A stretch of DNA of 64,000 nt, from the NCBI GenBank assembly GCA_964409055.1, contig CAYPBW010000001.1, forward strand, positions 9,354 to 73,353, read 5' to 3'. Each line of letters begins with the position of its first letter. Within the stretch, counting starts at the first letter, position 1. The position numbers were made by a program, and so were the translations under genes. This stretch comes from an uncultured Chitinophaga sp. (GTDB taxonomy: Bacteria > Bacteroidota > Bacteroidia > Chitinophagales > Chitinophagaceae). Shown piece after piece: positions 28,156-46,391 of the stretch. The notes beneath the pieces are model-generated. The model saw only the letters and a program-made list of their open reading frames with translations. It ran no database searches and had not been told where the DNA came from.

Positions 28156-28200
28156 CAAATTTCAGGTGCAATAATGAAGGCTGTGGTGACATTTGTTACA
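28156..28200 (-). promoter_or_regulatory. P1: CRP-type box plus -7-like element (DUF2892-DUF6132-trx-DUF983 operon)
   Basis: The box GGTGACATTTGTTACA (28185-28200) is followed, 21 nt downstream on the minus strand, by GAAATTTG (28156-28163). The ATG is at 28139. Confidence 0.6.
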
Positions 28201-28204
28201 AATA

Positions 28205-28231
28205 AAAACGGCTGTTAAAAACAGCCGTTTT
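28205..28231 (-). terminator. Terminator after sqr (bidirectional type)
   Basis: aaaacggctgt-taaaa-acagccgtttt forms a perfect 11-bp stem with A/T runs. Confidence 0.65.
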
Positions 28232-28250
28232 GCAAACCTTACATCAGTGT

Positions 28251-29447
28251 CTACATTTTACCGGGTAATATCTTGTGCCAGTATAGCCACGGTAAAATTC
28301 TTCTTTTCAACTGGTACATCGTCCACCGTTCTTTACTTTGGTCAAAAGGAAAAGTTTCAGTGGGTTTATTGTTGTAATCAAATTCGCAAAGGACAAGCTT
28401 GCCGTATCCTGTTACAACCGGGCAGCTTGAATACCCGTTATAACTTCCGGTTAACGGCTTTCCTTCCATAAAAGCCAGCAGGTTCTTTACCAGTACAGGA
28501 GCTTCTTTACGAATAGCGGCTCCTGTTCTTGAAGTAGGTAAAGAAGAAGCATCTCCCAGTGAGAACACATTTGGATACTTCACATGCTGCAAAGTGAATT
28601 TGTCTACATCTACCCAACCAGCGGCATTAGCCAATGGGCTATTCTTTACAAAATCGGGTGCACTTTGCGGAGGAGTTACATGTATCATATCAAAACTCAC
28701 CCAATATTCTTTGTCTTTATTTTGCTCTCCAAAACCAACAAATTTTGCTTTTTTATTGGGGCCATCAATTTCAACCAGTTTAGTAAAGAAATTCATCTGT
28801 ACTTTATCCCTTTCAGCCACTTTCTTCAGGGTCTTTTCGTATTTCTCCACACCAAATAGCCTGGTGCCGCCGCTCCAGTATTGTATCTCTGTTTTATCAA
28901 ATATTCCATGCTTTTTAAAGTAATCAGCAGCCAGCCACATTATTTTATGCGGGGCACCACCACATTTTACAGGTGTGTTCGGATTGGTGAACAAAGCTTT
29001 ACCTCCTTTGAAATTTTTCAGGCATTCCCAGGTATAGGGTGCATAATCAACACTGTAGTTGGAACATACGCCATTCTTTCCTATGGTTTCTTTCAGGCCT
29101 TTGATATCACCCCAGTTCAGTTGAATACCTGGCGCTACAATCAGGTATTCATATGCAATAATCTCATTGTTGTCTAAGGTTACCGTATTGGCTTCTGGTT
29201 GAAAGCTTGCTACTTTCTGTTTTATCCATTTTACTGATTTGGGCATTACATCAGCTTCATCACGAATGGTATTTTTCATATTGAAAACACCGGCACCAAC
29301 CAATGTCCATGCAGGCTGATAATAGTGTTTGTCAGAAGGCTCAATAATGGCAATGTCAAGATTCTTGTTTTTACGTAATAACTGAGAAGCAGTGGAGATA
29401 CCGGCATTACCTCCGCCAACGATTACAATTTGATGTTTGATTTGCAT
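28251..29447 (-). CDS. sqr: Sulfide:quinone oxidoreductase, type II (SQRDL-like)
   Basis: ATG at 29447 (MQIKHQIVIVGGGNAGIS, FAD fold). PVKCGGAPHKIM and SLGDASSLPTSRTGAA blocks are characteristic of type II SQR. Confidence 0.85.
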   Translation of the reverse strand: MQIKHQIVIVGGGNAGISTASQLLRKNKNLDIAIIEPSDKHYYQPAWTLVGAGVFNMKNTIRDEADVMPKSVKWIKQKVASFQPEANTVTLDNNEIIAYEYLIVAPGIQLNWGDIKGLKETIGKNGVCSNYSVDYAPYTWECLKNFKGGKALFTNPNTPVKCGGAPHKIMWLAADYFKKHGIFDKTEIQYWSGGTRLFGVEKYEKTLKKVAERDKVQMNFFTKLVEIDGPNKKAKFVGFGEQNKDKEYWVSFDMIHVTPPQSAPDFVKNSPLANAAGWVDVDKFTLQHVKYPNVFSLGDASSLPTSRTGAAIRKEAPVLVKNLLAFMEGKPLTGSYNGYSSCPVVTGYGKLVLCEFDYNNKPTETFPFDQSKERWTMYQLKRRILPWLYWHKILPGKM

Positions 29448-29465
29448 ATAGATCAATTTAGAACA

Positions 29466-29511
29466 CTAAAGTAGTACGGGGGTGCAGCCGGAGGTAGTGA
29501 CAATTGTCACA
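29466..29511 (-). promoter_or_regulatory. P2: CRP-type box plus -7-like element (sqr)
   Basis: The box AGTGACAATTGTCACA (29496-29511) has an inner 14-mer that is a perfect palindrome. TACTTTAG (29466-29473, minus strand) lies after a 22-nt spacer. Confidence 0.6.
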
Positions 29512-29554
29512 CCTTCGGCATTTAGAACGATAATCATATAATGATCCTTATTCG

Positions 29555-29570
29555 CCTGACTACAGTCAGC
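29555..29570. promoter_or_regulatory. Auxiliary CRP-type half-degenerate box in the sqr / PDO1 divergent region
   Basis: CCTGACTACAGTCAGC. Its core TGACTACAGTCA is identical to the core of box P9, and its centre is 22 bp from the P4 box centre. No -7-like element is in register. Confidence 0.45.
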
Positions 29571-29576
29571 TTTTTC

Positions 29577-29621
29577 TGTGACTTTTGTCATTTTGACCGG
29601 CACTATCCGCTGAGAAATTTG
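29577..29621 (+). promoter_or_regulatory. P4: CRP-type box plus -7-like element (PDO-rhodanese 1)
   Basis: The box TGTGACTTTTGTCATT (29577-29592) is followed 21 nt later by GAAATTTG (29614-29621). The ATG comes only at 29765, giving an unusually long leader. Confidence 0.55.
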
Positions 29622-29764
29622 TTGAGTTAATCAATCTTCTAATCAAAACAAATTACCGATGGAACACCTGTGCACCACCCGTTGCCCTTAATAAAATATC
29701 ATTTCACTTTTTACCGGATGAGGATTTTTTATTATTACCATTATCAAAATCTAAAATATTTTTT

Positions 29765-31189
29765 ATGAAAGTAGAACAAATTTATACCGGTTGCCTGGCA
29801 GAAGCAGCCTATTATATTGAGAGCAACGGGGAAGCTGCCATTATTGATCCTTTAAGGGAAACAAAGCCATATATTGATAAGGCGGAGCGAAATGGCGCAA
29901 AGATCAAATACATTCTTGAAACACATTTTCACGCAGATTTTGTTAGCGGTCACATTGACCTGGCTAAAAAAACAGGGGCAACAATTGTTTTCGGTCCTAC
30001 CGCTGCGCCGGCATACGATGTAAAGGTGGCCAGGGATGGCGAAGTACTTCAGTTAGGAGATGTCAAGATTAAAGTGTTGCATACACCGGGCCATACCATG
30101 GAATCCACCACTTATTTGCTGATAGATGAGAAAGGAAAGGATTATGCGATATTCACCGGCGATACATTATTTATCGGTGATGTGGGCCGCCCGGACTTAG
30201 TACAAAAAGTGAAGGCGGAGATCACTCCGCAGATTCTGGCCGGGTATCTATATAATTCACTCAGGAACCAGATCATGCCATTGGCTGATGATGTAATTGT
30301 ATATCCGGGACATGGGGCCGGCAGTGCCTGTGGTAAAAATATGAGTAAAGAGACCACTGATACGTTGGGCCATCAGAAGAAAGTCAATTATGCCCTTAGG
30401 GCTGATATGACAAAAGAAGAGTTCATTAAAGAAGTGACGGAAGGTTTGGTTGAGCCCCCACAGTATTTCCCTTACAATGTATTAATGAACCTGAAAGGGG
30501 GAATTGAAAGCATTGATGATATTATTGCAAGGGGTAAACGACCTCTTAGTGTCAAAGAGTTTCAGACCGTTTGGGAAAGTATGGAAGCTCTTGTATTGGA
30601 TACCCGGACCAAGGAAGCCTTTGTGGAAGAACATATTCCCGGATCAATATTCATTGGCATTGATGACAACTTCGCTCCCTGGTCAGGCACTTTGATAATG
30701 GATCTGAAGCAACCTATATTATTCCTTGCGGATGAAGGAAGGGAAGAGGAGGTAGTGGTTCGTTTGTCAAGAGTAGGATACGATAATGCTGTTGGTTTTC
30801 TACAGGGTGGTATTAAAGCCTGGAAAGAAGCAGGCTTTGAAACCGATTCCATAAAAGAAATAAGTGCTAATGATTTTGCCAGCCTCTACCAGATGGATTC
30901 TGAACATATAAACCTGCTGGATGCGAGACGTAAAAGTGAATTTGATTCTGAGCACCTGGTGGGTGCTGAAAACTTTCCCCTTGATTTCATTAACCAGAAC
31001 ATGTCGCAGTTAAGCAGGGATAAAAAGTACTTTATCCATTGTGCCGGCGGATATCGTTCTGTAATTATGGGTTCAATTTTAAAAGCAAGAGGCTTTGATA
31101 AATTGGTCAACATTCAGGGCGGCTATAAATCCTTAAGCCAGACAGGTCTTAAGAAGACACATTATGTAGAGCCCACTACCATGCTCTGA
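29765..31189 (+). CDS. Persulfide dioxygenase (MBL fold) fused to two rhodanese-like domains (CstB-like), copy 1
   Basis: 474 aa with ETHFHADFVSGH, HTPGHT and GDVGRPDL (MBL/PDO metal site), and a C-terminal rhodanese with active loop HCAGGYRS. Confidence 0.85.
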   Translation: MKVEQIYTGCLAEAAYYIESNGEAAIIDPLRETKPYIDKAERNGAKIKYILETHFHADFVSGHIDLAKKTGATIVFGPTAAPAYDVKVARDGEVLQLGDVKIKVLHTPGHTMESTTYLLIDEKGKDYAIFTGDTLFIGDVGRPDLVQKVKAEITPQILAGYLYNSLRNQIMPLADDVIVYPGHGAGSACGKNMSKETTDTLGHQKKVNYALRADMTKEEFIKEVTEGLVEPPQYFPYNVLMNLKGGIESIDDIIARGKRPLSVKEFQTVWESMEALVLDTRTKEAFVEEHIPGSIFIGIDDNFAPWSGTLIMDLKQPILFLADEGREEEVVVRLSRVGYDNAVGFLQGGIKAWKEAGFETDSIKEISANDFASLYQMDSEHINLLDARRKSEFDSEHLVGAENFPLDFINQNMSQLSRDKKYFIHCAGGYRSVIMGSILKARGFDKLVNIQGGYKSLSQTGLKKTHYVEPTTML

Positions 31190-31209
31190 TGATTGCTTAT
31201 TACGCTGAA

Positions 31210-31232
31210 AGCCAGCCCGTTGAAGGCTGGCT
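31210..31232 (+). terminator. Terminator after PDO-rhodanese 1
   Basis: agccagcc-cgttgaa-ggctggct followed by ttttt. The T-run abuts box P5. Confidence 0.55.
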
Positions 31233-31236
31233 TTTT

Positions 31237-31281
31237 TGTGATATTCGTCACGCATCACCACATCTGAGTTGGTTATTTTTG
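31237..31281 (+). promoter_or_regulatory. P5: CRP-type box plus perfect -7 element (thioredoxin 2)
   Basis: The box TGTGATATTCGTCACG (31237-31252) is followed 21 nt later by TATTTTTG (31274-31281, exact TAnnTTTG). The ATG is at 31297. Confidence 0.65.
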
Positions 31282-31296
31282 TACAAATTATCAGAT

Positions 31297-31671
31297 ATGG
31301 CAACAATAAAAATGACCACACAGGATTTTAAGAATAAGGTGTTTAACTACGAAACTGAGAAAGACTGGAAATACCAGGGACAACTTCCGGCTATTATTGA
31401 CTTTTATGCAGACTGGTGCGGTCCCTGCAAGATGGTGGCTCCAATATTAGAGGAACTTTCAAAGGAGTATGAGGGCAGGCTGGTTATTTATAAAGTGGAT
31501 ACAGATGTGGAGCAGGAACTGGCTGCCGTATTTGGTATTCAAAGTATTCCTACACTGCTTTTTATCGATTCGGAAGGTGAGCCTATGATGCAGCCGGGTG
31601 CATTGCCCAAACATATTTTCAAAAAGATAATTGATGAAAAATTATTAGCTCCTGTGAAAACAGAAGAGTAA
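31297..31671 (+). CDS. Thioredoxin (124 aa, N-terminally extended)
   Basis: ATG at 31297 (MATIKMTTQDF...) and the WCGPCK active site. The upstream part of the 160-aa ORF covers the terminator and box, so it is non-coding. Confidence 0.85.
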   Translation: MATIKMTTQDFKNKVFNYETEKDWKYQGQLPAIIDFYADWCGPCKMVAPILEELSKEYEGRLVIYKVDTDVEQELAAVFGIQSIPTLLFIDSEGEPMMQPGALPKHIFKKIIDEKLLAPVKTEE

Positions 31672-31690
31672 GTGATTTTGGTTGTAGCAT

Positions 31691-31721
31691 AAAAAAGCCA
31701 CATAAATAATGTGGCTTTTTT
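31691..31721. terminator. Bidirectional terminator between trx and tlpA-like gene
   Basis: aaaaaagccacat-aaata-atgtggctttttt forms a perfect 13-bp stem including A/T runs. Confidence 0.7.
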
Positions 31722-31746
31722 ATTTTCCTGATCAGAACCTGGCTTT

Positions 31747-32298
31747 TTACTTATTCAGTATTTCCACAAAATCCTTTGTATCATAGTCAAGCCCGCCTGT
31801 ATGTTCATAAATGATTTCACCTTTTTCATCAAAGATAAATGTGGTAGGTATGCCTTCCACATTGAATAACTGGGGTAAGTTACCTGTCGGATAGTAAACA
31901 GGAAGTTTCATTTTGTTATTCGCCGCATAAATTTTTGCTTTTACAAAATTGTCATCAAGGGAAAGCATCACAAATTCAACCTTTGCTTTGTCTGTTTTTA
32001 ATGCGAGACTTTCTATGGAAGGAATCTCTGCCCTGCAGGGAGGACACCAGGTGGCCCAAAGATTTACAAAGACCTTTTTTCCTTTAAACTGAGATAAATC
32101 AAATGACTGATTATCTGTATTGATCATTTGTAAAGATGGAAGTGCTGATGCAACGGCAGGTGCAGTTGGTTGAGTTGTTGTTGCCGGCTGGTTAGAAACA
32201 ACGGTTTCTGTTTTTTCTGCAGCAGGTTTTTCGGCCGTTGAATTACTACAGCTAATTAATACGGCGATCATTACAACTGATAAAAAGAAATATTTCAT
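31747..32298 (-). CDS. TlpA/ResA-like thiol-disulfide oxidoreductase lipoprotein
   Basis: ATG at 32298 gives MKYFFLSVVMIAVLISC (lipobox). WATWCPPCRAE is the active site. Confidence 0.8.
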   Translation of the reverse strand: MKYFFLSVVMIAVLISCSNSTAEKPAAEKTETVVSNQPATTTQPTAPAVASALPSLQMINTDNQSFDLSQFKGKKVFVNLWATWCPPCRAEIPSIESLALKTDKAKVEFVMLSLDDNFVKAKIYAANNKMKLPVYYPTGNLPQLFNVEGIPTTFIFDEKGEIIYEHTGGLDYDTKDFVEILNK

Positions 32299-32345
32299 TA
32301 TACAATAATTTATTGTGCAATATGCCCCGCAATGCTGGTAACTGC

Positions 32346-32390
32346 GGTGATAAATATCACCAATTTCGTCAAACACAGCCTTCAAATTTG
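32346..32390. promoter_or_regulatory. P6: shared CRP-type box between the divergent tlpA-like and methyltransferase genes
   Basis: The box GGTGATAAATATCACC (32346-32361) has perfect 6-bp arms. Toward the + gene, CAAATTTG (32383-32390) follows after 21 nt. Toward tlpA there is only a weak CATATTG. The box centre is 53-55 nt from both ATGs. Confidence 0.6.
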
Positions 32391-32406
32391 CCAAAAGAAA
32401 TATAAA

Positions 32407-33000
32407 ATGCAGCAATTCTGGGATCAACGATACGCAAAGAACGAAACAGTATATGGCTATGAGCCGAATAAGTTTTTCAAGCTATTTATTGACCTGCATA
32501 AGCCGGGCTCCATACTGTTGCCAGCAGAAGGTGAAGGCCGCAATGCTGTGTATGCTGCGTCAAAGGGCTGGCAGGTGGATGCTTTTGACTTCAGTGAGGT
32601 AGCCCGTGAAAAGGCACTTGATTTTGCAAGTGCAGAAAATGTTCAGGTAAACTATGATTTAAAAAATATTACAGCCTTTAAAGCGGAAAAGCTGTACGAT
32701 GCTGTCGGCCTGATTTATATTCACCTGCCGGATGAGCAGAGAAAAAGGTTTCATCAGGAAATATATAATTCAATCAAACCAGGCGGCTTTCTGGTATTGG
32801 AAGCATTTGCCAAAGAACAAGCACAGTTTAAAAGCGGCGGACCGAGAGATACGGCACTTTTGTATGATGCTCCATCACTTTGCAGTGATTTCCCTTTTCT
32901 ACACCTGATGAGTTGTGAGCAAAAAGAAATTATTCTCAACGAAGGAGATTACCATAAAGGAAAAGCAGCCGTACTTCGAATAATTGGCCAGCGGTTATAA
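32407..33000 (+). CDS. Class I SAM-dependent methyltransferase (TehB/TPMT-like)
   Basis: ATG at 32407 (MQQFWDQRYAKNE...), 197 aa, with the LLPAEGEGRNAVY SAM-binding loop. Confidence 0.75.
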   Translation: MQQFWDQRYAKNETVYGYEPNKFFKLFIDLHKPGSILLPAEGEGRNAVYAASKGWQVDAFDFSEVAREKALDFASAENVQVNYDLKNITAFKAEKLYDAVGLIYIHLPDEQRKRFHQEIYNSIKPGGFLVLEAFAKEQAQFKSGGPRDTALLYDAPSLCSDFPFLHLMSCEQKEIILNEGDYHKGKAAVLRIIGQRL

Positions 33001-33018
33001 AGTTTAAATTTCCGCTTA

Positions 33019-33591
33019 CTATTTCATTTCTGTAAAAATGATATGCCATACGCCTCTTAAGTCACCATCCTTGTAATTAAAAGCAGCATCATCTGGATAT
33101 TTTTTCTGGATCATATCCCATGTATCCGGTTTTATCTGTGTTTCTTTTTCCCCGTGACAGTTCAGGCACATTGCCTGAATAAATATGGGTTTGAAGTAGT
33201 GATGGTTTCCCTTTGAATCTTGCTTTACAATTGCTGTTAGTTGTTTATTTTCTTTTTTTTGTTCCAGGTAGGTCTTAATCACATCTTTTTCCATCTCATC
33301 CGGGGTATTGACGGAATTACGGATTTTATCAGAAGTTCTTTTAATTTGGATTCCTGCACCCGTATAAGTTTTTGTAAGATCTAATGCCGATGTATTACAA
33401 AAATCAACAGCGCCTGGAATGCCTCTTTCGCTGATTGCTTTCAGCAATGTATTTCTGAGTGTGTCAAATGTTTGTACTGTCAGTGAATCTCCTTTGTTTT
33501 TCCAATCTATAAATTCTTTTTTATCTTTTGATTCTTTGCAGGAAACCAAAAAAGTCAATAAGCCGGTAATGAGAAATGAATATTTCAACAT
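33019..33591 (-). CDS. DUF3365 (Tll0287-like) c-type heme lipoprotein
   Basis: 190 aa with lipobox LVSC and a single CLNCHG heme-attachment motif. Confidence 0.65.
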   Translation of the reverse strand: MLKYSFLITGLLTFLVSCKESKDKKEFIDWKNKGDSLTVQTFDTLRNTLLKAISERGIPGAVDFCNTSALDLTKTYTGAGIQIKRTSDKIRNSVNTPDEMEKDVIKTYLEQKKENKQLTAIVKQDSKGNHHYFKPIFIQAMCLNCHGEKETQIKPDTWDMIQKKYPDDAAFNYKDGDLRGVWHIIFTEMK

Positions 33592-33607
33592 AAACCATTT
33601 TTTAAGG

Positions 33608-34867
33608 TTAATATACAGCGGGGTGAAAACAATCTTCAGAGGGATAGATTTTCTTCAAGGTACAGCACATTCTGAAGTGTGCTACAAGGCCGGCAACCCC
33701 GGTAATAAATGCTATAACAATAATTGCAGTACTTAGTCCGATAAAATCTGCCAGAATACCGGCCAATAATGCACCTATTACATATCCGCTGTCTCTCCAA
33801 AAACGGAAAATGCTCAGTGTTTCTGCCCGTTGGGAAGGGTGGGTACTTTCCGCTACCACTGTCAAAAAGTTAGGATAAACCAATGCTGTTCCCAGCCCCA
33901 GAAGTATAGATGCGGTGATGAGCAGCCATAGTACAGAAGCTGTGGCAAGAATAAAAATTGCTGCAGCCTGTAACAACATACCCCCTGTGATGATCTGTTT
34001 TTTGCAATACACATCACCCATTTTTCCGGTGAAGAGTTGCATCACTCCCCATACAACCGGGTAGATTCCTGCAATGATCCCAATTTCCTGTATGGTAAGG
34101 GATTTTTGCAGCAGCAGAACAGGCAACAGTCCCCAAACAACTGCATCATTCATATTATTTACTAAACCATTCAACGTAACTGTACCTATATTTTTGTGCT
34201 TCCAGGTTGTTTCTTTCCATACATTTTTCATCAGTGCCAGTTTGCTGACAGTACTTTCTGCATGTACAAAATGTGTGGTATCTTTTACAAGAAATATAGA
34301 AATAAGTAAACCGGCGCCTGCCAAAAACAAACCTGGAATAAACGGATACCAGGCGTATCCATAGCTGCTGGCGAGAGAGCTGGCGAGATAGGAAGCCAAT
34401 CCTACAGATAAGTAACCGGCAAATTCATTGATGCCCATAGCAAGCCCACGGTTCTTTTGACCAACGATATCCACTTTCATGATAACGGTGGTGGACCAGG
34501 CCAATCCCTGGTTAATGCCAAGTAATACGTTGGCGATAATAACCCATGTCCAGGTTTCGGCATACATAAGAAGCAATGGTACAGGTAAGGCAAACAACCA
34601 GCCAGTAATCAGTATATGTTTTCGATTGAATCGTTTGCTCAGTTTTGCAACGCTATAATTGCTGATGGCTTTGGTAATGCCAAACGCCATAATAAAACTT
34701 AGAATTGCTGTATTGGCATCTAATCCAAATATATCTTTACCAAGACCTGGCAAAACGGCTCTTTCCAGGCCTATCATAGCACCGACAAAAGCATTAACCA
34801 GCACTAATAAAGAAAACTGTTGCCAGTTATCTTTTATTCCGTGTTGTATGGTATGCTCTCTGTTCAC
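33608..34867 (-). CDS. MFS transporter
   Basis: 419 aa with about 12 TM segments. The GTG start overlaps the stop of the upstream Kelch-like gene (GTGA). Confidence 0.85.
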   Translation of the reverse strand: MNREHTIQHGIKDNWQQFSLLVLVNAFVGAMIGLERAVLPGLGKDIFGLDANTAILSFIMAFGITKAISNYSVAKLSKRFNRKHILITGWLFALPVPLLLMYAETWTWVIIANVLLGINQGLAWSTTVIMKVDIVGQKNRGLAMGINEFAGYLSVGLASYLASSLASSYGYAWYPFIPGLFLAGAGLLISIFLVKDTTHFVHAESTVSKLALMKNVWKETTWKHKNIGTVTLNGLVNNMNDAVVWGLLPVLLLQKSLTIQEIGIIAGIYPVVWGVMQLFTGKMGDVYCKKQIITGGMLLQAAAIFILATASVLWLLITASILLGLGTALVYPNFLTVVAESTHPSQRAETLSIFRFWRDSGYVIGALLAGILADFIGLSTAIIVIAFITGVAGLVAHFRMCCTLKKIYPSEDCFHPAVY

Positions 34868-36180: not shown

Positions 36181-36201
36181 AATAAATTGCTATTATTCCG
36201 G

Positions 36202-36246
36202 CTAAATTATTGGATTGCTAATAGCCGTGTTGTGATTTTCATCACA
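36202..36246 (-). promoter_or_regulatory. P7: perfect CRP-type box plus -7-like element (Kelch-MFS-DUF3365 operon)
   Basis: The box TGTGATTTTCATCACA (36231-36246) is followed 21 nt downstream by TAATTTAG (36202-36209, minus strand). The ATG is at 36180. Confidence 0.65.
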
Positions 36247-36259
36247 CTATAATGAAAAA

Positions 36260-36281
36260 GCCAGGGGAAGAATCCCCCGGC
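36260..36281 (-). terminator. Hairpin after the YeeE/YedE pair
   Basis: gccagggg-aagaat-cccccggc (1 mismatch). On the minus strand it is followed by ctttttcatt. Confidence 0.45.
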
Positions 36282-38493: not shown

Positions 38494-38503
38494 AATTTTT
38501 AGC

Positions 38504-40198
38504 TTATCTGAATTCGTAAGTTGTTCCTTGTAGTTGTGTAAGCAGTGTATGTGGTTGGTCGGTTGCGGTAGCCCGCATTTCCAGTTTTGGTGAAACCGGT
38601 GAGTGTACCTCCAGGTATTCTTCAATAACTGTGTGCATCAATACACCTAGTTTTTTTGGATTTTTTACTTTTTCCATACGGCAAAGTGTATCGTCCGGAT
38701 CGCCTTCTCTTTCACAGGCAACGATGCTGTATTCTTTATCAAGGTTCAGCGGTTCTCCTTTTATCTTCACCCAGTTTACTCTTTTTCCAAACTCATTATC
38801 AATAGTAAAATTCACTTCCATGCCTGCGAATCGCACAAACCAGCCGCCAAAGCGTTTCGACGGATCTTTGGCAAATGCGTTTTGTAATTCTTTTTCCAGC
38901 CAGTCCCAAACCTGCCTGCCGGTAACTGTCCCTGTCTTTGCTTCGCTATCAACAGGCAGCATGTTCCATAAAAACTCTTTGGTGATTTCAGCTTTCCCGG
39001 TTTTTGGATCTACTGCTAATGGTTGACAGAAACGGAAGCCATTGCTTAACGCAATATCTGTTTTGAATTTCCAGTGTATAGCATCAGTAATCAGGTTATC
39101 CATTGGTGTTTCCATTACAAAATATCTTACCAGCGGGGTAGTGGTGGTTCCAATTACTTTGGATAATTGCTGTTTATACGGCGCAGCTGCTTTATCTATC
39201 TGAGCCTGCAATTTTTTATCAGCAGGGTACTTGGCGGGGTCTACATCAAGTAACTGGTATTTGTAACTCTTCATTTTTCCATTTTCCACTTCAATATCCA
39301 GTTTACCAAGAAATGAACCAAAAGCACCGCATTCAACTACTTTGGTGTATTTGCCTTCAATAGGAACTCTTACTCTTTCATGTGTATCTGCACCCAAAAT
39401 GAAATCTGCGCCTGCCACTGCTGAGTTGTTTGCCAGTCCTACTTGTTGCGCCAGGCCCATATGCGTAACAATGAAAATAATTCCGCAGCCTTCCACTTCC
39501 TTTAGCAGTTTAATGTATTTAGCCACATTAAAATCAGCATGTTCAAATCGAATTCCTTCGCTGTAAGCCGGAGACTGACGTTTAGGTATCAGGTGGTCGG
39601 TATAGCCAATGAAACCAACTTTGGCTCCGGCAATATACTTTACCCAATAGGGCGGGTAAATCAATTCGCCATTATCTGTATCGTTAGTTTTATGCCACAT
39701 ATTGGCACAAATCTTTGCTGCCGTGGCATGTCCCATATCATAAAGCATTTTCTTTTTCTTATAGACCACTTCCCAATTGCCCGGAAGAATGAGATCATAA
39801 TTAAAATCGTTGAGCAGGGGTATCAATGCTTCACCTTCTGTCAGTGATGCTACGGCACTTCCATGGAAATAGTCGCCCCCATCCAACAATAGGGTGTTGG
39901 ATGGATTTTGCCTGCGAAAATGATTGATCATGGTTTTTAATACTGCTAACCCGCCTCTCTTTCTGTACACTGCTTTCCCGTTTTCCCAGAAAAATTCATC
40001 GTGGGTATGAAGCTGGGCATGAATATCGGAGGTATAAAGTATTGTAAACCTGCCTGGTGTTCCAGTCTCAGTTTTATTATTTAGCTGTTCTGTAGCAGCT
40101 ATAGCTACTGAACCAAGGGTAGTACCCATGCCTGCCAATGCAGCTTTTTTCAAAAAATCCCGGCGGGAATTAGAATCCATGTTTTTCAATGAAGACAT
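38504..40198 (-). CDS. Tat-exported dinuclear metallophosphoesterase/5'-nucleotidase-fold protein, divergent SoxB-like
   Basis: ATG at 40198. Twin-arginine signal SRRDFLKKAALAGMG. Motifs TSDIHAQ, DGGDYFHGS, GNWE (not the GNHE of UshA type), and C-terminal FGGWFVRFAGMEV...GKRVNWVKIKGEPL. Confidence 0.65.
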   Translation of the reverse strand: MSSLKNMDSNSRRDFLKKAALAGMGTTLGSVAIAATEQLNNKTETGTPGRFTILYTSDIHAQLHTHDEFFWENGKAVYRKRGGLAVLKTMINHFRRQNPSNTLLLDGGDYFHGSAVASLTEGEALIPLLNDFNYDLILPGNWEVVYKKKKMLYDMGHATAAKICANMWHKTNDTDNGELIYPPYWVKYIAGAKVGFIGYTDHLIPKRQSPAYSEGIRFEHADFNVAKYIKLLKEVEGCGIIFIVTHMGLAQQVGLANNSAVAGADFILGADTHERVRVPIEGKYTKVVECGAFGSFLGKLDIEVENGKMKSYKYQLLDVDPAKYPADKKLQAQIDKAAAPYKQQLSKVIGTTTTPLVRYFVMETPMDNLITDAIHWKFKTDIALSNGFRFCQPLAVDPKTGKAEITKEFLWNMLPVDSEAKTGTVTGRQVWDWLEKELQNAFAKDPSKRFGGWFVRFAGMEVNFTIDNEFGKRVNWVKIKGEPLNLDKEYSIVACEREGDPDDTLCRMEKVKNPKKLGVLMHTVIEEYLEVHSPVSPKLEMRATATDQPHTLLTQLQGTTYEFR

Positions 40199-40231
40199 CG
40201 GCAATCGTTTTAGGTGAAAAATTACAAGAAT

Positions 40232-40276
40232 TAAAAATGCTTTCTTTAAGCAACCCGGTTCGTGACTACAGTCACA
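40232..40276 (-). promoter_or_regulatory. P9: CRP-type box plus weak -7-like element (soxB-like / tsdA-like operon)
   Basis: The box CGTGACTACAGTCACA (40261-40276) is followed 21 nt downstream by CATTTTTA (40232-40239, minus strand). Confidence 0.55.
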
Positions 40277-40295
40277 TTTCCCCTTTTAATATTTC

Positions 40296-41714
40296 TTAAA
40301 ACTGGTAATTTAAAACAATGTTCCAAAGACTCATATCTGCTTTATTGATAACGTATTTGTCGTTTCCGTAACTACTGCCTGTTTTTCCTTTATAAACATA
40401 CAGCAGTTGCGTTTCCAGACCCTTTAATATACCGCCAAATTTATAGCGGGCATCAATATTCAACTGGTTATATGAGGGCATTCCATATTTATTGAACCTG
40501 AAATCCGTTACATCCGGCAACTCATAATGCCCGAAGGCTATTGAAGTTGTGATCCTGGCCTTCGGTATTTTGTAATTGACTTTGCCCACCACAGCATGTG
40601 CATCTCCCAGCCCTTCATTTCTTTCTCTCGGTAAAAAGGTGAAGAAAGGATCCCGGCCCCATTCTCTCGGCATAAGGTATCTTCCTTGAGCAGTAATACG
40701 GTTATAGTTCAGGCTTGTTTCCCATTTTTCATACTTCCATCCCAGCCTGGTTCCGAAAGTTATTGCCCTGGCACCCTTTTCAACATAGGCTTTTGAAGGA
40801 TCATTATTGCCACCATCCTTTACTGCATCCTGCCTTATAAACTGTGCCGCTGCAAAAAGCTTTGAATTTTTGGATATCGGATATTCATAATCTGCCTGCA
40901 GCATAGCACTGTTAAAGATATTTTCTGTGTATTGGTTCCAAAACTGGAGTTTTAACTGGTCATTTATTTGGGTAGTAATGCCGGCCAGAAAAATTCCTTT
41001 GCTTTCCAGGTTTCCGGCATATTCAGATTTTATACCCTCATCATTTACCCCCACAGGATATACCCCGATAGACTCTGCTACGTTAAACCACTTAACTGTA
41101 CTTCTGGGCGAAATGCCGTATAAATATCCAAACTGCAACCTGAGTTTTTTTATAGAGTTCATTTCTGTCCAGATACCTTCCACTTCTGTCGGCCTCATCC
41201 GGCCATCCTGCAGGTTAATAAAAGGAGTATTGATCAGTTGTTTACCAAGGGTAATGTGATTGTTACTAAAGTGATACTTGATATATAATTCTTCCAAGCG
41301 GTCAATATCTTTTTTATTAGCAGGGTCTTCAATATCGAACAACCCCGTTTCGTACCTGTTCATTTGTTTGGTTTTGGAATCAGGCACGGAAAGGTCGGAG
41401 GAGCCAATATTATAAACAAAAAATCCGCTCACCCCCACCTGGAAATTCTTAAACCTGCCTGTTTCAAATTTTATTCCGCCTCCCACTGCGTTGGCATAAT
41501 AATCTGTCAGTCCCTCTTTATTATCTGTTGCCATAAAATAATACCGGAAATGGCCACTGAATGTGCCCTTTCTGAATGCGGATAAAATCGAAGTGGAATC
41601 AGCTTCGCTCTCTTTTTCCTTCCATAAACCCGGTTTCTCATTTATCTCCTGGTGCTGTGTATATCCTGGAAGTGAAATCACTATTGCAGTGATGAGTATG
41701 AGAATCTTCTTCAT
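40296..41714 (-). CDS. Outer-membrane beta-barrel porin (OprD-like)
   Basis: 472 aa with a signal peptide, alternating beta-strand pattern throughout, and a C-terminal ...VLNYQF aromatic terminus. Confidence 0.65.
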   Translation of the reverse strand: MKKILILITAIVISLPGYTQHQEINEKPGLWKEKESEADSTSILSAFRKGTFSGHFRYYFMATDNKEGLTDYYANAVGGGIKFETGRFKNFQVGVSGFFVYNIGSSDLSVPDSKTKQMNRYETGLFDIEDPANKKDIDRLEELYIKYHFSNNHITLGKQLINTPFINLQDGRMRPTEVEGIWTEMNSIKKLRLQFGYLYGISPRSTVKWFNVAESIGVYPVGVNDEGIKSEYAGNLESKGIFLAGITTQINDQLKLQFWNQYTENIFNSAMLQADYEYPISKNSKLFAAAQFIRQDAVKDGGNNDPSKAYVEKGARAITFGTRLGWKYEKWETSLNYNRITAQGRYLMPREWGRDPFFTFLPRERNEGLGDAHAVVGKVNYKIPKARITTSIAFGHYELPDVTDFRFNKYGMPSYNQLNIDARYKFGGILKGLETQLLYVYKGKTGSSYGNDKYVINKADMSLWNIVLNYQF

Positions 41715-41767
41715 TACGCTGTACGCATTATGTTTTTGAATAATTGGGGAACAGTCTGTTTCTGGAA

Positions 41768-42199
41768 TCAGAAACCGGCTTTTATATAACTCCAGCCTTG
41801 TTCTTGTTTTCGTACGATTTCGCCGATTCCCATTTTTACAAAAGTGGCTTCTGCTATGATGGTCTCTTTAGGAATTTTTCGCTCCATCATGGTGTTTTCG
41901 CAGGCAATGAACGTAATACCCATTTGTTTGAAATGGCTGATCTTTTCCTGTTGCGTTGTTTTGCCTTTTGTCAGAAAATCAAGACCCGGGCCATGCGCCA
42001 CAACTTCTATTACCACACTGTCGCCCCATCCGGCTTTAAGGTGCTTCAGGTTATTCATCAACCCTTTCCATACCAATGTATCGTTACTGCTTAACTGCAT
42101 TACAATACGATGCTGTGAAACCGTTCCACTTGTGTTTTGAGCCCATCCCTGCAATGCAAATAAGGATATAATGGCAGCCAGTCTGATTCTTTTGTGCAT
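41768..42199 (-). CDS. Exported DsrE/DsrF-like family protein
   Basis: ATG at 42199 gives MHKRIRLAAIISLFALQGWAQ (Sec signal). RIVMQLSS...IEVVAHGPGLDFL...FIACENTM matches the DsrE-like fold and Cys position. Confidence 0.65.
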   Translation of the reverse strand: MHKRIRLAAIISLFALQGWAQNTSGTVSQHRIVMQLSSNDTLVWKGLMNNLKHLKAGWGDSVVIEVVAHGPGLDFLTKGKTTQQEKISHFKQMGITFIACENTMMERKIPKETIIAEATFVKMGIGEIVRKQEQGWSYIKAGF

Positions 42200-42216
42200 A
42201 GTTGTTGAATTTGGTG

Positions 42217-42639
42217 TTATTGTTCCTTTGCTCCGGTCCAATTAGTATAGCCACCATTCAGGTCATACAGTTTTGTAAAACCCATTTCTTTCATGATGCT
42301 CATGGCGTCTATACTTCTTTTTCCACTGCGGCAATAGACCAGGTATGTTTTGTTCTTGTCGAGGCTTGAAATCTGTGCTTTGAACTCTTCTTTTTTTAGC
42401 ACATCAATTTGTGTAGCATGGGGTATATGGCCAGCTTTATATTCATCTGTTGTCCTTACATCCAGCACAACGGTGTTCTTTTTCTTGCTGAGCCGTTCAA
42501 ATTTTTTCTGACTTATTGTTTTGCCTGCCGGATTATCCTGGGCTTGTGCGCAAACAGAACCACATAAGCCAGCCAGCATTAAGGCTGCAGCAATAAATAA
42601 CCAACTGATGCTTTTTATTTTTTTTAGTATAGTACTCAT
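42217..42639 (-). CDS. Exported single-domain rhodanese
   Basis: 140 aa with a signal peptide (…CGSVCAQAQD) and active loop CRSGKRS. Confidence 0.85.
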   Translation of the reverse strand: MSTILKKIKSISWLFIAAALMLAGLCGSVCAQAQDNPAGKTISQKKFERLSKKKNTVVLDVRTTDEYKAGHIPHATQIDVLKKEEFKAQISSLDKNKTYLVYCRSGKRSIDAMSIMKEMGFTKLYDLNGGYTNWTGAKEQ

Positions 42640-42947
42640 GCTATTTTAGTTATCAGACTATTCCAGGGGCCTCCGTTATAGGCCTCAATACCGGCAGATT
42701 TCAGTATGCCTTTTGCCATTCCGCTACGGGCACCGCTTCTGCATACAGTGATTACAGGTTTATTCAGCTTTTTAAGTTCAGCTATTTTAGTACGTATGCT
42801 GTCAAGCGGATAGTTTTTTGATCCGGGAATATGCCCTGATTTGTACTCACCAGCAGACCGAACATCTATTATAACAGCCCCCTTACCGATAAGCTCTTTG
42901 TAGTTGACAGAAGTTCCTCCAAATAGTTTCTTTAAAAATCCAATCAT
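42636..42947 (-). CDS. Single-domain rhodanese (cytoplasmic)
   Basis: 103 aa with active loop CRSGARS. 4-nt overlap with the next gene. Confidence 0.85.
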   Translation of the reverse strand: MIGFLKKLFGGTSVNYKELIGKGAVIIDVRSAGEYKSGHIPGSKNYPLDSIRTKIAELKKLNKPVITVCRSGARSGMAKGILKSAGIEAYNGGPWNSLITKIA

Positions 42948-42958
42948 TGTTTTTAGTA

Positions 42959-43240
42959 TTAATTTAATAAGAATTGCATATCTCCTAAACCACCGCCGTT
43001 ATATACTTCAGTAATACCATTTTGTTTCAGAATGCTTACTGCCATTCCGCTCCTGTTGCCGCTGCGGCAATAGAGCACTATAGGCGTTTTTATTTCTTTG
43101 AGTTCCTTTATCTTGTACATGACCTCTTCCAGGGGAATATTTTTGGCTCCGGGTACATGTTCCATGTCAAATTCCCACGGACTTCTTACATCGACAATTA
43201 CTGTCTCTGATTTTTTTATTATCTCTTTTAATGACTGCAT
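42959..43240 (-). CDS. Single-domain rhodanese (cytoplasmic)
   Basis: 93 aa with active loop CRSGNRS. Confidence 0.85.
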   Translation of the reverse strand: MQSLKEIIKKSETVIVDVRSPWEFDMEHVPGAKNIPLEEVMYKIKELKEIKTPIVLYCRSGNRSGMAVSILKQNGITEVYNGGGLGDMQFLLN

Positions 43241-43259
43241 TGCTTTTTTAGTTTTAAAA

Positions 43260-43286
43260 AAGCGGCTGTTGTTATGGCAGCCGCTT
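43260..43286 (-). terminator. Hairpin between prx and the rhodanese block
   Basis: aagcggctg-ttgttatgg-cagccgctt. On the minus strand it is followed by ttttttaaaac, only 21 nt before the rhodanese ATG. Confidence 0.5.
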
Positions 43287-43290
43287 GGTT

Positions 43291-43941
43291 TTATAATGTT
43301 TTTTTGGCTAAGTACCAGTCCACCTTTTCTACCGTGTCGTCAGCTAGCCTTGCTTCGTAATCAGCCAACGTTTTAGGTGGGGGTACGATTACTTTGTCAC
43401 CCGGTTCCCAGTTAAGAGGGATTGCCACTTTGTTAGCATCGCTTGTTTGCAATGCAAGCAGCACTCTTTTTATTTCATGCATATTCCTGCCAACGTTCAG
43501 CGGGTAATACATGATAAGGCGAATCGTTCCCTTAGGGTCTATAAAAAATACGGCTCTTACGGCAGCAGTTTCGCTTTCATTGGGTTGCAGCATGCCGTAT
43601 AACTTGGCTACTTTCATGTCCAGGTCGGCTATGATGGGAAATTGGAAATACACACCGGTGTTTTTTTTCACATTATCAACCCAGGCAATATGTGAATGAA
43701 CACTGTCGATACTTAACCCTATCAGTTTAGTATTATGCTTGTCAAAGAAGCTTTCCTGTTCCATTGCAAAGCCGCTCATTTCTGTTGTACATACGGGTGT
43801 GAAATCGGCAGGGTGTGAGAACAGGATCACCCAACTATCTTTTGCATAGTCTGAAAACTTGATCACTCCTTTGGTAGTAACAGCCGAGAAGTCAGGAGCT
43901 TTATCACCTATCCTTGGCATTGTTATAGTATTTGGTTCCAT
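43291..43941 (-). CDS. 1-Cys peroxiredoxin (Prx6 type)
   Basis: 216 aa with the FTPVCTTE peroxidatic Cys motif and no resolving-Cys motif. Confidence 0.9.
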   Translation of the reverse strand: MEPNTITMPRIGDKAPDFSAVTTKGVIKFSDYAKDSWVILFSHPADFTPVCTTEMSGFAMEQESFFDKHNTKLIGLSIDSVHSHIAWVDNVKKNTGVYFQFPIIADLDMKVAKLYGMLQPNESETAAVRAVFFIDPKGTIRLIMYYPLNVGRNMHEIKRVLLALQTSDANKVAIPLNWEPGDKVIVPPPKTLADYEARLADDTVEKVDWYLAKKTL

Positions 43942-43971
43942 GTTTTGATTTTTAATTGATTTTTTAATAAG

Positions 43972-43991
43972 GCCGGGGAAGATTCCCCGGC
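43972..43991 (-). other. GC-rich hairpin without U-tract between PDO-rhodanese 2 and prx
   Basis: gccgggga-agat-tccccggc forms a perfect 8-bp stem. It resembles the hairpin at 36260-36281. No T-run follows on the minus strand. Confidence 0.4.
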
Positions 43992-44023
43992 ACTTTTACC
44001 TTAACCATTAAACCAACCAACAT

Positions 44024-45442
44024 TTATAATAGTGTCGAAGGACACACATAGTCGCTTATTTTGAACTTACCACTTTCTTTCAGTGCCTTGAAACCGCTTT
44101 TTACATCAACCAGGTTGTCAAATCCCCTGGCACGGAGAATTGAGTTGAATATCATAGAGCGATAACCACCGGCACAATGAACATAATAGGTCTTTTTCTT
44201 ATCGATCTGGGCCATGCTGTCGTTGATAAAGTCAAGTGGTGCATTTTCTGCTTCTACCAGGTGTTCACTCAGGTATTCACTTTTTTTACGGACGTCAAGA
44301 ATGTTTATCTTTTCTTTCTGTGATATGTCCGCAAGTTCATCTGCAGTTACAGATTTAATCATATCAACTTCCTTTCCGGCATTTTTCCAGGCATTGAAAC
44401 CACCTTTCAGGTAACCAATGGTAAAATCATAACCGACCCTGGCTAATCTTGTTACTACTTCTTCTTCACGACCCTCGTCAGTTACAAGTAATATTTCCTG
44501 TTTGATATCGGGAATCATAGCGCCAACCCATGGGGCAAACTGGCCATCAATACCAATATTTATTGAGTTAGGAACAAAGCCCAGCGCAAATGTTTGCGGA
44601 TCTCTTGTATCCAGTACTAATGCACCGGTTTCATTGGCTGCAGTTTCAAAAGCATCCGGACTTAAGGCATGCTGACCTCTTTCGAGCACTTTATCAATAC
44701 TGTCATACCCTTGTATATTCATCATCACATTCAGCGGGAAATAAGCAGGAGGAGCAACAAGCCCTGTTGTAACTTCTTTGATGAATTCTTCTTTGGTCAT
44801 ATTTGCCCGGAGTGCATAATTTGTTTTTTTCTGATTGCCCAGTGTATCAGTTGTTTCTTTACTCATGTTTTTGCCACAGGCACTGCCAGCACCGTGGGCA
44901 GGATATACGGTAATATCATCAGCCAGTGGCATGATCTTATTTCGGAGAGAGTCAAACAAATAACCGGCTAATTTATCCTGTGTAAGGTCGGCTGCCACTT
45001 TCTGTGCAAGGTCAGGACGACCTACATCACCGATAAACAATGTATCACCGGAGAACAAACCAACATCCTTACCGTTTTCATCTTTCAGCAGGTAGCAGGT
45101 ACTTTCCATCGTATGACCGGGAGTATGCAGTACTTTCAATGTTACATTGCCTACTTTAAATTCCTGGCCATCTTCAGCAATCAGTGCATCAAAGGCAGGT
45201 TTAGCATTTGGACCGTACACAATGGGTGCGCCGGTTTTTTTGCTAAGGTCAAGGTGACCGCTGACAAAGTCGGCATGAAAGTGTGTTTCAAAAACGTACT
45301 TGATCTTTGCATTGTTACGTTCAGCCTTTTGGATATAAGGCTCTACCTCACGCAGCGGATCAATTACAACAGCTTCACCATTACTCTCGATGTAATAAGC
45401 ACCTTGTGCCAAGCAACCGGTATAAATTTGTTCTACTTTCAT
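44024..45442 (-). CDS. Persulfide dioxygenase (MBL fold) fused to two rhodanese-like domains (CstB-like), copy 2
   Basis: 472 aa, colinear with copy 1 and roughly 65-70% identical by eye, with the same ETHFHADFVSGH and HCAGGYRS motifs. Confidence 0.85.
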   Translation of the reverse strand: MKVEQIYTGCLAQGAYYIESNGEAVVIDPLREVEPYIQKAERNNAKIKYVFETHFHADFVSGHLDLSKKTGAPIVYGPNAKPAFDALIAEDGQEFKVGNVTLKVLHTPGHTMESTCYLLKDENGKDVGLFSGDTLFIGDVGRPDLAQKVAADLTQDKLAGYLFDSLRNKIMPLADDITVYPAHGAGSACGKNMSKETTDTLGNQKKTNYALRANMTKEEFIKEVTTGLVAPPAYFPLNVMMNIQGYDSIDKVLERGQHALSPDAFETAANETGALVLDTRDPQTFALGFVPNSINIGIDGQFAPWVGAMIPDIKQEILLVTDEGREEEVVTRLARVGYDFTIGYLKGGFNAWKNAGKEVDMIKSVTADELADISQKEKINILDVRKKSEYLSEHLVEAENAPLDFINDSMAQIDKKKTYYVHCAGGYRSMIFNSILRARGFDNLVDVKSGFKALKESGKFKISDYVCPSTLL

Positions 45443-45474
45443 TTGCTATATTTTTTTTGTTTTTTATTGAAGAT

Positions 45475-45519
45475 CAAATTTCGGATCTGGAAACATGCTG
45501 AACAGTGACATCAATCACA
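45475..45519 (-). promoter_or_regulatory. P10: CRP-type box plus -7-like element (PDO-rhodanese 2, probably with prx)
   Basis: The box AGTGACATCAATCACA (45504-45519) is followed 21 nt downstream by GAAATTTG (45475-45482, minus strand). The ATG is at 45442. Confidence 0.6.
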
Positions 45520-45520
45520 A

Positions 45521-46330
45521 TCAATGCCCACCGCCACCGGGGAAGAATAACTCTTTAACAATTATATAAATACCCATTACGAGTACAAACCAACCGAACC
45601 CTTTTTTCAGGCCATCAGCAGATACTTTTTTACTGAGTGCATTACCAATGAAAATCCCAACAATGGCAAGACCGGTAACGGACAGTAAAAGTGTCCAGTC
45701 CATGTTTTGTTTGCCAAGGTCACCGGTGAACCCGATTAGTGATTTTGCAGCTATGATTAATAGAGAAGTTCCCACTGCCTGTTTCATTGGCAGCTTACTC
45801 AGTAACACCAATGCCGGGATAATTAGGAAACCGCCTCCGGCACCCACTAACCCTGTGAGCATACCTACCACAGCGCCTTCCAGTAGTATCATTGGATAAT
45901 TGAATTTTTGCTCGCCAGTTTCTTCCGATTTCCCTTTTTTGTTCCTGATCATAGATACAGAAGCAAATACCATCAAAATGGCAAACAGTATCATCATCAG
46001 CAATGATTTAGTTACAACAAAATCACCGATATGAAATACTTCTTTGGGAATGGCGGGTACAAGGAAGGCTCTTGTTGCAAACACTGCTATAATCGAAGGG
46101 ATACCGAAGATGAGAGCAGTTTTCAGGTTCACTTCACCGCTTTTATATTTCGGGTAAGTGCCTACCAGGCTGGTAGCCCCTACAATAAAAAGTGAATAAG
46201 CGGTGGCAAGTACGGGGTTTACCCCAAAAAGATAAACGAGAACAGGTACAGTAAGAATAGAACCGCCTCCGCCAATTAAGCCAAGAGAAACACCGATCAG
46301 AAGAGAAGCTATGTATCCGATTATTTCCAT
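45521..46330 (-). CDS. TauE/SafE family sulfite/anion exporter
   Basis: ATG at 46330 (MEIIGYIASLLIGVSLGLIGGGGSILTVP), 269 aa, about 8 TM segments with an internal repeat. Confidence 0.85.
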   Translation of the reverse strand: MEIIGYIASLLIGVSLGLIGGGGSILTVPVLVYLFGVNPVLATAYSLFIVGATSLVGTYPKYKSGEVNLKTALIFGIPSIIAVFATRAFLVPAIPKEVFHIGDFVVTKSLLMMILFAILMVFASVSMIRNKKGKSEETGEQKFNYPMILLEGAVVGMLTGLVGAGGGFLIIPALVLLSKLPMKQAVGTSLLIIAAKSLIGFTGDLGKQNMDWTLLLSVTGLAIVGIFIGNALSKKVSADGLKKGFGWFVLVMGIYIIVKELFFPGGGGH

Positions 46331-46346
46331 GCAAAATTTATTTATG

Positions 46347-46391
46347 CAAAGGTGAACGGAATACAATTGCTGTACTGTGACTCAAATCACA
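46347..46391 (-). promoter_or_regulatory. P11: perfect CRP-type box plus -7-like element (tauE)
   Basis: The box TGTGACTCAAATCACA (46376-46391) is followed 21 nt downstream by CACCTTTG (46347-46354, minus strand). The box starts 8 nt after the regulator stop codon. Confidence 0.65.

Follow-up and report, generated by a model that had tools for sequence, protein, structure and literature searches.

What places a Kelch-like protein, an MFS transporter and a methyltransferase under the same control as enzymes of sulfide oxidation? The question is raised by a block of genes in a 64-kb stretch of DNA (hereafter the window) from a member of the family Chitinophagaceae, phylum Bacteroidota. The block extends from a tRNA gene (26804-26891, minus strand) to a gene for a Crp/Fnr-family regulator (46399-47016). 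It encodes a type III SQR, two PDO-rhodanese fusions, TauE, a split YeeE/YedE transporter, a SoxB-like protein, a SoxA/TsdA-like cytochrome, three rhodaneses, DsrE, a 1-Cys peroxiredoxin, an OprD-like porin and two thioredoxins, along with a TPMT/TehB-like methyltransferase, the Kelch-like protein, the MFS transporter, a Tll0287-like protein, an 84-aa protein (small84) and a DUF983-like protein. Housekeeping genes lie on both sides, those for fumarase, GluRS and TatD on one, and those for MurF and a protein with an FGE-sulfatase domain on the other. An earlier note, made from the letters of the window, had described eleven TGTGA-N6-TCACA boxes in this block and taken them to define one regulon. 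The boxes are very probably operators of the adjacent regulator and together define one regulon; the claim stands for ten of them as promoter boxes, and the eleventh, 29555, is better read as an accessory site at about -63.5.

Boxes and promoters in the window

On direct re-checking of the window, all eleven boxes were found where they had been placed, with the sequences given for them. Ten are followed, toward the downstream gene, by an nAnnTTTG-like 8-mer that begins 21 nt after the box (22 nt at sqr) and ends 29 nt past it (30 nt at sqr), exactly as had been listed. Each of these 8-mers matches four or five of the five specified bases of the Bacteroidota sigma-A -7 element, TAnnTTTG. Every box adjoins the first gene of its transcription unit on the upstream side, and boxes 31237 and 36231 directly follow what reads in the sequence as a terminator-like hairpin closing the preceding unit. 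The interval of 52.5-70.5 nt between box centre and start codon agrees with the earlier claim, the exception being PDO1, where a 10-codon micro-open reading frame (micro-ORF) lies in between; predicted 5′ untranslated regions measure 11-29 nt. A composite scan for the core with up to two mismatches, the spacing and the -7 element returned no comparable site elsewhere in the window; the earlier note, too, had noticed none in the intergenic regions inspected for it.

Whether the boxes exceed chance turns on the definition of the motif. TGTGA-N6-TCACA, taken loosely with up to two mismatches, occurs 32 times against 30.5 expected, that is, without enrichment across the window. The tight core GTGAY-N4-RTCAC, adopted after that result, has eight exact matches in the window, all within 29497-46377, whereas 300 Markov simulations of the window gave 0.12 on average and never more than 2; the enrichment, approximately 65-fold, is restricted to the sulfur block. 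The control for the motif scans was the rest of the window and 634 kb of regulator-upstream flanks from related loci. Boxes 28185 (half-site GTTAC) and 29577 (half-site GTCAT) each carry one core mismatch, while 29555, which reads CTGAC-N4-GTCAG, falls outside the tight core and is without a -7 element of its own.

The spacing of box and -7 element can be placed on a promoter scale by means of the genome-wide map of transcription start sites in Flavobacterium psychrophilum, in which the sigma-A consensus TAnnTTTG occupies positions -12 to -5 (PMC9723704). With a 21-bp spacer, the 16-bp box then covers -49 to -34 and is centred at -41.5, in the class II position that had been proposed for it. 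The box centre lies 29.5 bp from the first base of the -7 element, a distance equal to that from -41.5 to -12 at class II promoters of E. coli. A -33 TTTG was not found in the aggregate of 226 sites from related loci (see below), which shows just a weak T two bases past the box. A site centred at the predicted -41.5 and the lack of a -33 TTTG would give the geometry of a class II activator-type promoter, provided that transcription starts where the -7 element predicts, and class II activation by the regulator is likely. The cis-architecture is that of a textbook class II CRP/FNR site placed on a Bacteroidota sigma-A promoter.

Conservation of the architecture in related loci

A scan of species-representative genomes yielded 80 Chitinophagaceae loci in which the regulator is 79-97% identical to that of the window. 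Gene order is conserved near the regulator (FGE, MurF, regulator, TauE, PDO2), and the rest of the cluster is shuffled. Exact cores numbered 227 in 588 kb on the sulfur-gene side, downstream of the regulator, versus 2 in 634 kb upstream. The sole two cores outside the sulfur side (L049, 7987; L076, 7936) are identical, GTGATACACGTCAC, and occupy matching positions about 2 kb upstream of the regulator gene.

The same layout of box, spacer and -7 element recurs before the first genes of the same operons across these orthologous loci and is missing from internal genes and from the unrelated flank, which bears out the idea of one regulon. A box precedes PDO2 in 67 of 68 loci, the SoxB-like gene in 23 of 25, the thioredoxin gene Trx_b in all 13, SQR in 9 of 10 and the Kelch-like gene in 9 of 11; for TauE, present in 75 loci, there are 72 exact-core boxes, and small84 has a one-mismatch box in 7 of 8 loci. 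The figures are lower for the methyltransferase (6 of 10) and for YeeE, where a box with zero or one core mismatch was detected in 30 of 56 loci. In many loci YeeE_a directly follows other cluster genes, and judging by this gene order, YeeE is probably operon-internal in the loci without a box. Essentially no boxes were found before internal genes, FGE, MurF or the regulator itself. Imperfect boxes (28185, 29577) stay imperfect across relatives: the PDO1 box retains its TCAT arm in every locus that yielded sequence upstream of PDO1, and the CTGA/TCAG arms of box 29555 are kept exactly 22 bp upstream of the PDO1 box in L012, L026, L036 and L067, the four other loci for which this region was available.

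The 226 unique sites were aligned on nothing but the box and turned to face the downstream gene; information was then high only in the box and at positions +22 to +29, which read nAnnTTTG (A in 201, T in 205, T in 185 and G in 169 of 226 sites). The spacer and flanks carry essentially no information; hence, the promoters are neither copies of one another nor duplicated cassettes, and it is the architecture itself that is under selection. Of 176 spacers, 164 measured 21 bp, eight 22 bp and four 20 bp. Among TTTG occurrences ending at offsets 20-35, 86 of 102 end at offset 29 in the direction of the gene, compared with 3 of 22 in the opposite direction, in which TTTG has no preferred offset. The two ends of the box, positions 1 and 16, are unequal in these 226 sites (L001-L080), with T at the promoter-distal flank in 153 and A at the promoter-proximal flank in just 82, an asymmetry that likely reflects a proximal edge abutting the polymerase.

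The regulator and its operator code

The 205-aa regulator contains the Pfam domains PF00027 (cNMP_binding), PF13545 (HTH_Crp_2) and PF00325. Its AF2 model (pLDDT 88.5) has the expected Crp/Fnr secondary structure, and the top Foldseek matches are all Crp/Fnr proteins, with 4ev0 and 3dv8 as the leading PDB entries; the protein is a transcription factor of the CRP/FNR superfamily. NCBIfam provides no specific name for it. The recognition helix reads S-R-E-V-I-S-R, and R179, E180 and R184 align with R180, E181 and R185 of CRP, in an alignment whose 20% identity gives residue matching moderate reliability. CRP proper, the cAMP receptor, was considered and ruled out by the residues V76, S87 and E88, which align with the cAMP ligands E72, R82 and S83, and by an NCBIfam CRP score of 43 bits against a cutoff of 266. 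FNR was likewise ruled out, as the regulator has just two cysteines, C74 and C80, none of them N-terminal, and reaches 27.6 bits with the NCBIfam Fnr model, whose cutoff is 228. The regulator gene lies 10 nt behind murF and is preceded by a box in none of 76 loci with the same recognition helix; it appears to be constitutive.

Evidence that this protein is the binder of the boxes, as the earlier note had suggested, comes from covariation between recognition helix and operator in 165 loci. In 85 loci with the E-type helix (SR-E-VISR), there are 226 GTGA/TCAC boxes and 4 GTAA/TTAC boxes, whereas in 80 loci with a V-type helix (SR-V-VISR), 149 boxes are GTAA/TTAC and 1 is GTGA/TCAC, with the same spacer. 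V-type homologs are about 45% identical to the regulator of the window and include those of cultured marine Flavobacteriaceae (Salegentibacter, Mesonia and Aequorivita) and of 80 metagenome loci retrieved by protein similarity alone; their boxes, TGTAAC-N4-GTTACT, stand 21 bp from TAnnTTTG. The base that changes with the helix is position 7 of the CRP half-site, the pair read by Glu181. Operator specificity in the Crp/Fnr family is held to be set by the CRP triad, and the Val181 variant of CRP was first obtained by selection on operators carrying A or T at that position (PMC2677863); the split between E180-type regulators with GTGA and V-type regulators with GTAA agrees with this code. On these sequence comparisons, covariation can be called decisive evidence that the adjacent regulator, with its CRP-type R-E-x-x-x-R triad, binds the boxes.

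The linkage between regulator and sulfur genes reaches well beyond the family. Regulators at 57-63% identity stand beside the same gene families, with other upstream neighbours, in Flavobacterium sp. H122, Flavihumibacter rivuli and a JGI contig, and the linkage persists at about 45% identity in the V-type loci, again with different upstream neighbours. Genes downstream of V-type boxes encode TauE (37), PDO-rhodanese (36), SQR (11), a DUF983-like protein (11), YeeE (7), rhodanese (6), peroxiredoxin (5), cytochrome bd subunit I (3) and, by our reading of the sequence rather than by a Pfam match, a SulP-like permease (10). The association of the regulator is thus with sulfur metabolism, across at least two classes of Bacteroidota.

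Several details of the V-type loci may be added. In some Flavobacteriaceae, the genes for cytochrome bd belong to the cluster or immediately follow a box: in Salegentibacter (L084, 10031-12468) they are part of the cluster, and three more metagenome loci show one arrangement or the other. This enzyme is a sulfide-insensitive oxidase, and its presence in the cluster fits a module for sulfide-resistant respiration. A further Crp/Fnr paralogue, with an SREVISR helix and only one pocket cysteine (GESCVMS), is encoded in loci L089 (12807) and L096 (12509), and near that of L096, amid GTAAC boxes, there is one TGTGAC-N4-GTCACA box (14101), which suggests paralogue-specific operators within one locus. 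In the same two loci, a GTAAC box precedes the gene just upstream of the regulator (L089, 7533; L096, 7725), so that autoregulation is possible in the V-type clade; in L085, the gene just upstream of the regulator encodes a cytochrome c (7541-7990), and no box was called there.

Cysteines and the inducing signal

C74 and C80, the only cysteines of the regulator, show no variation among 81 orthologs or in a 43-sequence alignment (A3) that covers both clades. Of 150 family representatives, reaching down to about 31-35% identity, 145 have C74, and the second cysteine is at position 80 or 81. In the structure model, the two residues cap and lie within helix 75-82, which corresponds to the phosphate-binding cassette of CRP in an alignment at 20% identity. 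Given the regulon content and the two cysteines, the inducing signal is probably reactive sulfur, that is, sulfide-derived persulfide or polysulfide. Direct sensing by C74 and C80, proposed by analogy with known persulfide sensors, may be given an even chance.

Proposed mechanism and alternatives

The explanation that best accounts for the whole, and a likely one, is that of a homodimeric regulator acting as a class II activator of a regulon for sulfide and persulfide detoxification. A homodimeric Crp/Fnr-family protein would bind the 16-bp palindromes, each of which takes the place of a -33 element and would span about -49 to -34, and would recruit RNA polymerase by class II contact. About ten transcription units would thereby be switched on: those for SQR, the two PDO-rhodanese fusions, TauE, the YeeE/YedE pair and the SoxB-like and SoxA/TsdA-like proteins, and also the set of rhodaneses, DsrE, peroxiredoxin and porin, the two thioredoxin units, the methyltransferase, and the unit of Kelch-like protein, MFS transporter and Tll0287-like protein. 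Their products would oxidise and export sulfide-derived sulfur, and persulfide or polysulfide might be sensed via C74 and C80, which flank the helix equivalent to the phosphate-binding cassette.

Some observations weigh against this explanation. In relatives, no box is detectable at half of the YeeE promoters and at 4 of 10 methyltransferase promoters. The E/V covariation divides two clades and may reflect one or few evolutionary events, and Val181 CRP of E. coli loses discrimination at position 7 rather than gaining a strict preference for A. The sulfur signal is read from regulon content and two cysteines, and the placement of these in the pocket from an alignment at 20% identity. A protein at -34 to -49 could in principle also act as a repressor. 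In such a scheme the same regulator would occlude the upstream part of the promoter until released by the signal, as the persulfide sensors CstR and SqrR/BigR are. The characterised dedicated regulators of sqr and pdo, CstR and SqrR/BigR, are repressors, and the box overlaps the region of a would-be -33 element. Occlusion, however, tolerates variable positions, whereas the spacer is fixed within 1 bp in 176 sites from diverged genomes, a hallmark of contact between protein and polymerase; moreover, the promoters are without the -33 TTTG, as expected of activator-dependent promoters, and the distance of 29.5 bp from box centre to the first -7 base is that of class II promoters. Repression is accordingly improbable.

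A sensor of redox state or oxygen, either FNR-like or a thiol-disulfide switch, with the block induced by hypoxia or oxidative stress, is unlikely too, if marginally less so. Homologs are named 'anaerobic regulatory protein' in source annotations, cytochrome bd, peroxiredoxin and thioredoxins are among the regulon members, and C74 and C80 could form a simple disulfide. Yet the FNR-type four-Cys cluster is missing and the Fnr score (27.6) is far from its cutoff (228); the core of the regulon in both clades consists of TauE, PDO-rhodanese, SQR, YeeE and rhodaneses, and cytochrome bd is, as a matter of general knowledge, also a sulfide-insensitive oxidase. There is very little probability that an unlinked Crp/Fnr paralogue binds the boxes and the adjacent regulator has other targets, even though TGTGA-N6-TCACA is a generic CRP-type consensus and a second paralogue occurs in some loci (L089, L096): a box stands immediately past the regulator stop codon in 72 of 75 loci, the linkage of regulator and sulfur genes is kept while other neighbours change, and a residue of the adjacent regulator's own helix tracks the box sequence. 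The boxes might also be palindromes that arose by chance, or what is left of a repeat element or of a duplicated promoter cassette. The lack of enrichment of the loose pattern would favour this, but the tight core is enriched only in the block, spacers and flanks have no sequence in common, and sites are kept at orthologous positions across genera; core enrichment, information-free spacers and the distribution of 227 versus 2 refute this reading, which can be set aside with near certainty. An RNA hairpin formed by the palindromes was also rejected, because the arms are sequence-invariant, without compensatory changes, in the 226 sites.

Features of the block

The boxes, their -7 elements and the units that they precede are listed in Table 1. 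The PDO2 operon comprises PDO2, the peroxiredoxin (Prx), three rhodaneses, DsrE and the OprD-like porin.

Table 1. Promoter boxes and associated features of the sulfur block (window coordinates)
Feature	Position	Strand	Box sequence	-7 element	Unit and remarks
TauE box	46376-46391	-	TGTGATTTGAGTCACA (gene orientation)	CACCTTTG, 46347-46354	TauE ATG 46330
PDO2 operon box	45504-45519	-		GAAATTTG, 45475-45482	operon 40296-45442
SoxB-like / SoxA-TsdA-like cytochrome c operon box	40261-40276	-		CATTTTTA, 40232-40239	operon 37489-40198
YeeE/YedE-type sulfur transporter pair box	37466-37481	-		CAATTTTG, 37437-37444	genes 36310-37413
Kelch-like / MFS / Tll0287-like operon box	36231-36246	-		TAATTTAG, 36202-36209	operon 33019-36180
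TPMT/TehB-like methyltransferase box	32346-32361	+		CAAATTTG, 32383-32390	gene 32407-33000
Thioredoxin Trx_b box	31237-31252	+		TATTTTTG, 31274-31281	gene 31297-31671
PDO1 box	29577-29592	+	TGTGACTTTTGTCATT	GAAATTTG, 29614-29621	imperfect TCAT half-site
Degenerate accessory box	29555-29570	+	CCTGACTACAGTCAGC		centre 22 bp upstream of PDO1 box, about -63.5
Type III SQR box	29496-29511	-		TACTTTAG, 29466-29473	22-bp spacer; gene 28251-29447
small84 / thioredoxin / DUF983-like operon box	28185-28200	-		GAAATTTG, 28156-28163	operon 26930-28139
Crp/Fnr-family regulator	46399-47016	-			205 aa; proposed box binder
PDO1 leader micro-ORF	29659-29691	+			MEHLCTTRCP-stop; between PDO1 promoter and PDO1 ATG (29765)

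The micro-ORF in the PDO1 leader is kept, with 9-10 codons, at the orthologous position in L012, L036 and L067 and is missing in L026. Its orthologs read MNTSCTSRCP-stop, MQICNSRCP-stop and MKLSCTSRCP-stop, with synonymous codon changes, and of five matches to C-x-x-R-C-P-stop in six frames of 2.2 Mb, four lie behind a PDO1 box. The peptide could serve Cys-dependent attenuation or be a sulfur-reactive micro-peptide. An Rfam scan of the window returned tRNA only, and no riboswitch or known RNA that would account for the boxes or the PDO1 leader. An ATCAT pentamer (29521-29527), about 10 nt past the right-hand edge of the sqr box, is kept in L012, L026, L036 and L067 and extends to AATCAT in the window and three of these four relatives; it occupies the would-be -7 position on the plus strand and is unlike TAnnTTTG. 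A TlpA-like lipoprotein redoxin (31747-32300, minus strand) lies inside the block, divergent from the methyltransferase. Box 32346 is not followed by a -7 element at the right distance in the direction of this gene, a box was found in none of 11 relatives, and the gene seems not to belong to the regulon. The tRNA gene adjoins the DUF983-like gene at the block's outer edge, and gene content between this edge and the regulator differs strongly among relatives, which suggests that the sulfur cluster is modular or mobile.

Significance and comparison with known systems

Through this analysis the sulfide-oxidation genes of Bacteroidota, a phylum abundant in soil, wastewater and the ocean, gain a regulator, an operator code and a promoter mechanism, at the strengths given above. 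Obscure genes, namely those for the Kelch-like, Tll0287-like, DUF983-like and 84-aa proteins, the MFS transporter and the TPMT-like methyltransferase, are placed in one sulfur-stress response. The operator split confirms the CRP Glu181/position-7 recognition rule in nature and on a large scale, a testable new chemistry is nominated for the Crp/Fnr sensor domain, and the module of box and -7 element would make a compact, predictable inducible promoter for the engineering of Bacteroidota.

The closest parallel in promoter design is provided by the class II CRP/FNR promoters of E. coli, which share the 16-bp dyad with TGTGA and TCACA arms 6 bp apart, the R-E-x-x-x-R triad, the centre distance of 29.5 bp and the lack of an upstream (-35/-33) element. 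In contrast to E. coli, the polymerase holoenzyme is here of the Bacteroidota sigma-A type, reading TAnnTTTG, and unlike FNR and CRP, the regulator lacks the Fe-S ligands of the former and has different residues at the cAMP-ligand positions of the latter. HcpR of Porphyromonas gingivalis (PDB 9day; TM 0.71) is likewise a Crp/Fnr stress regulator from the same phylum, and the HcpR-type operators that have been predicted in Clostridium and Treponema share with the V-type boxes an A at position 7. HcpR differs in that it is only 18% identical and responds to heme/NO in nitrosative stress; no hcp gene was seen in the loci with gene tables or in the annotated block of the window. The best sequence match among solved structures is EUBREC_1222 of Eubacterium rectale (PDB 3dv8; E 1.9e-19), which has a C-x5-C pair and an S-x-REVI-x-R helix (SHREVITR versus SSREVISR here), although it is an uncharacterised protein from a Firmicute.

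In terms of targets, the regulon resembles those of CstR (CsoR family), SqrR/BigR/YgaV (ArsR family) and FisR (a sigma-54 activator), which comprise sqr, pdo-rhodanese, rhodaneses, TauE and YeeE-type transporters. With the dithiol persulfide sensors CstR and SqrR/BigR the regulator shares a conserved Cys pair and, by analogy, perhaps the sensing chemistry, and with FisR the proposed output, activation. Its fold, however, is that of Crp/Fnr and not of CsoR or ArsR, so that it would at most work like CstR and SqrR/BigR; unlike CstR, SqrR and FisR, it carries its cysteines in a pocket resembling that for cyclic nucleotides, and positive control by class II contact is proposed for it. Nothing relevant on a Crp/Fnr regulator of sulfide or persulfide response, or on any sqr/pdo or sulfide-responsive regulator in Bacteroidota, was found in the searchable library of literature consulted; in a 2026 review, Crp figures solely as a protein that is persulfidated in Acinetobacter. 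What appears new here is a Crp/Fnr regulator tied to sqr and pdo genes, in a cis-architecture of an already known kind, with a substantial chance that the sensor chemistry is new as well. That the protein is the founding member of a phylum-wide Crp/Fnr subfamily of Bacteroidota, sensing reactive sulfur directly via a Cys pair in the cassette and acting as a class II activator, is a tentative proposal to which we give slightly less than an even prospect. If true, it would add a fourth structural class of dedicated persulfide sensor to the CsoR, ArsR and sigma-54 types, and the first case in which persulfidation of thiols replaces a nucleotide ligand.

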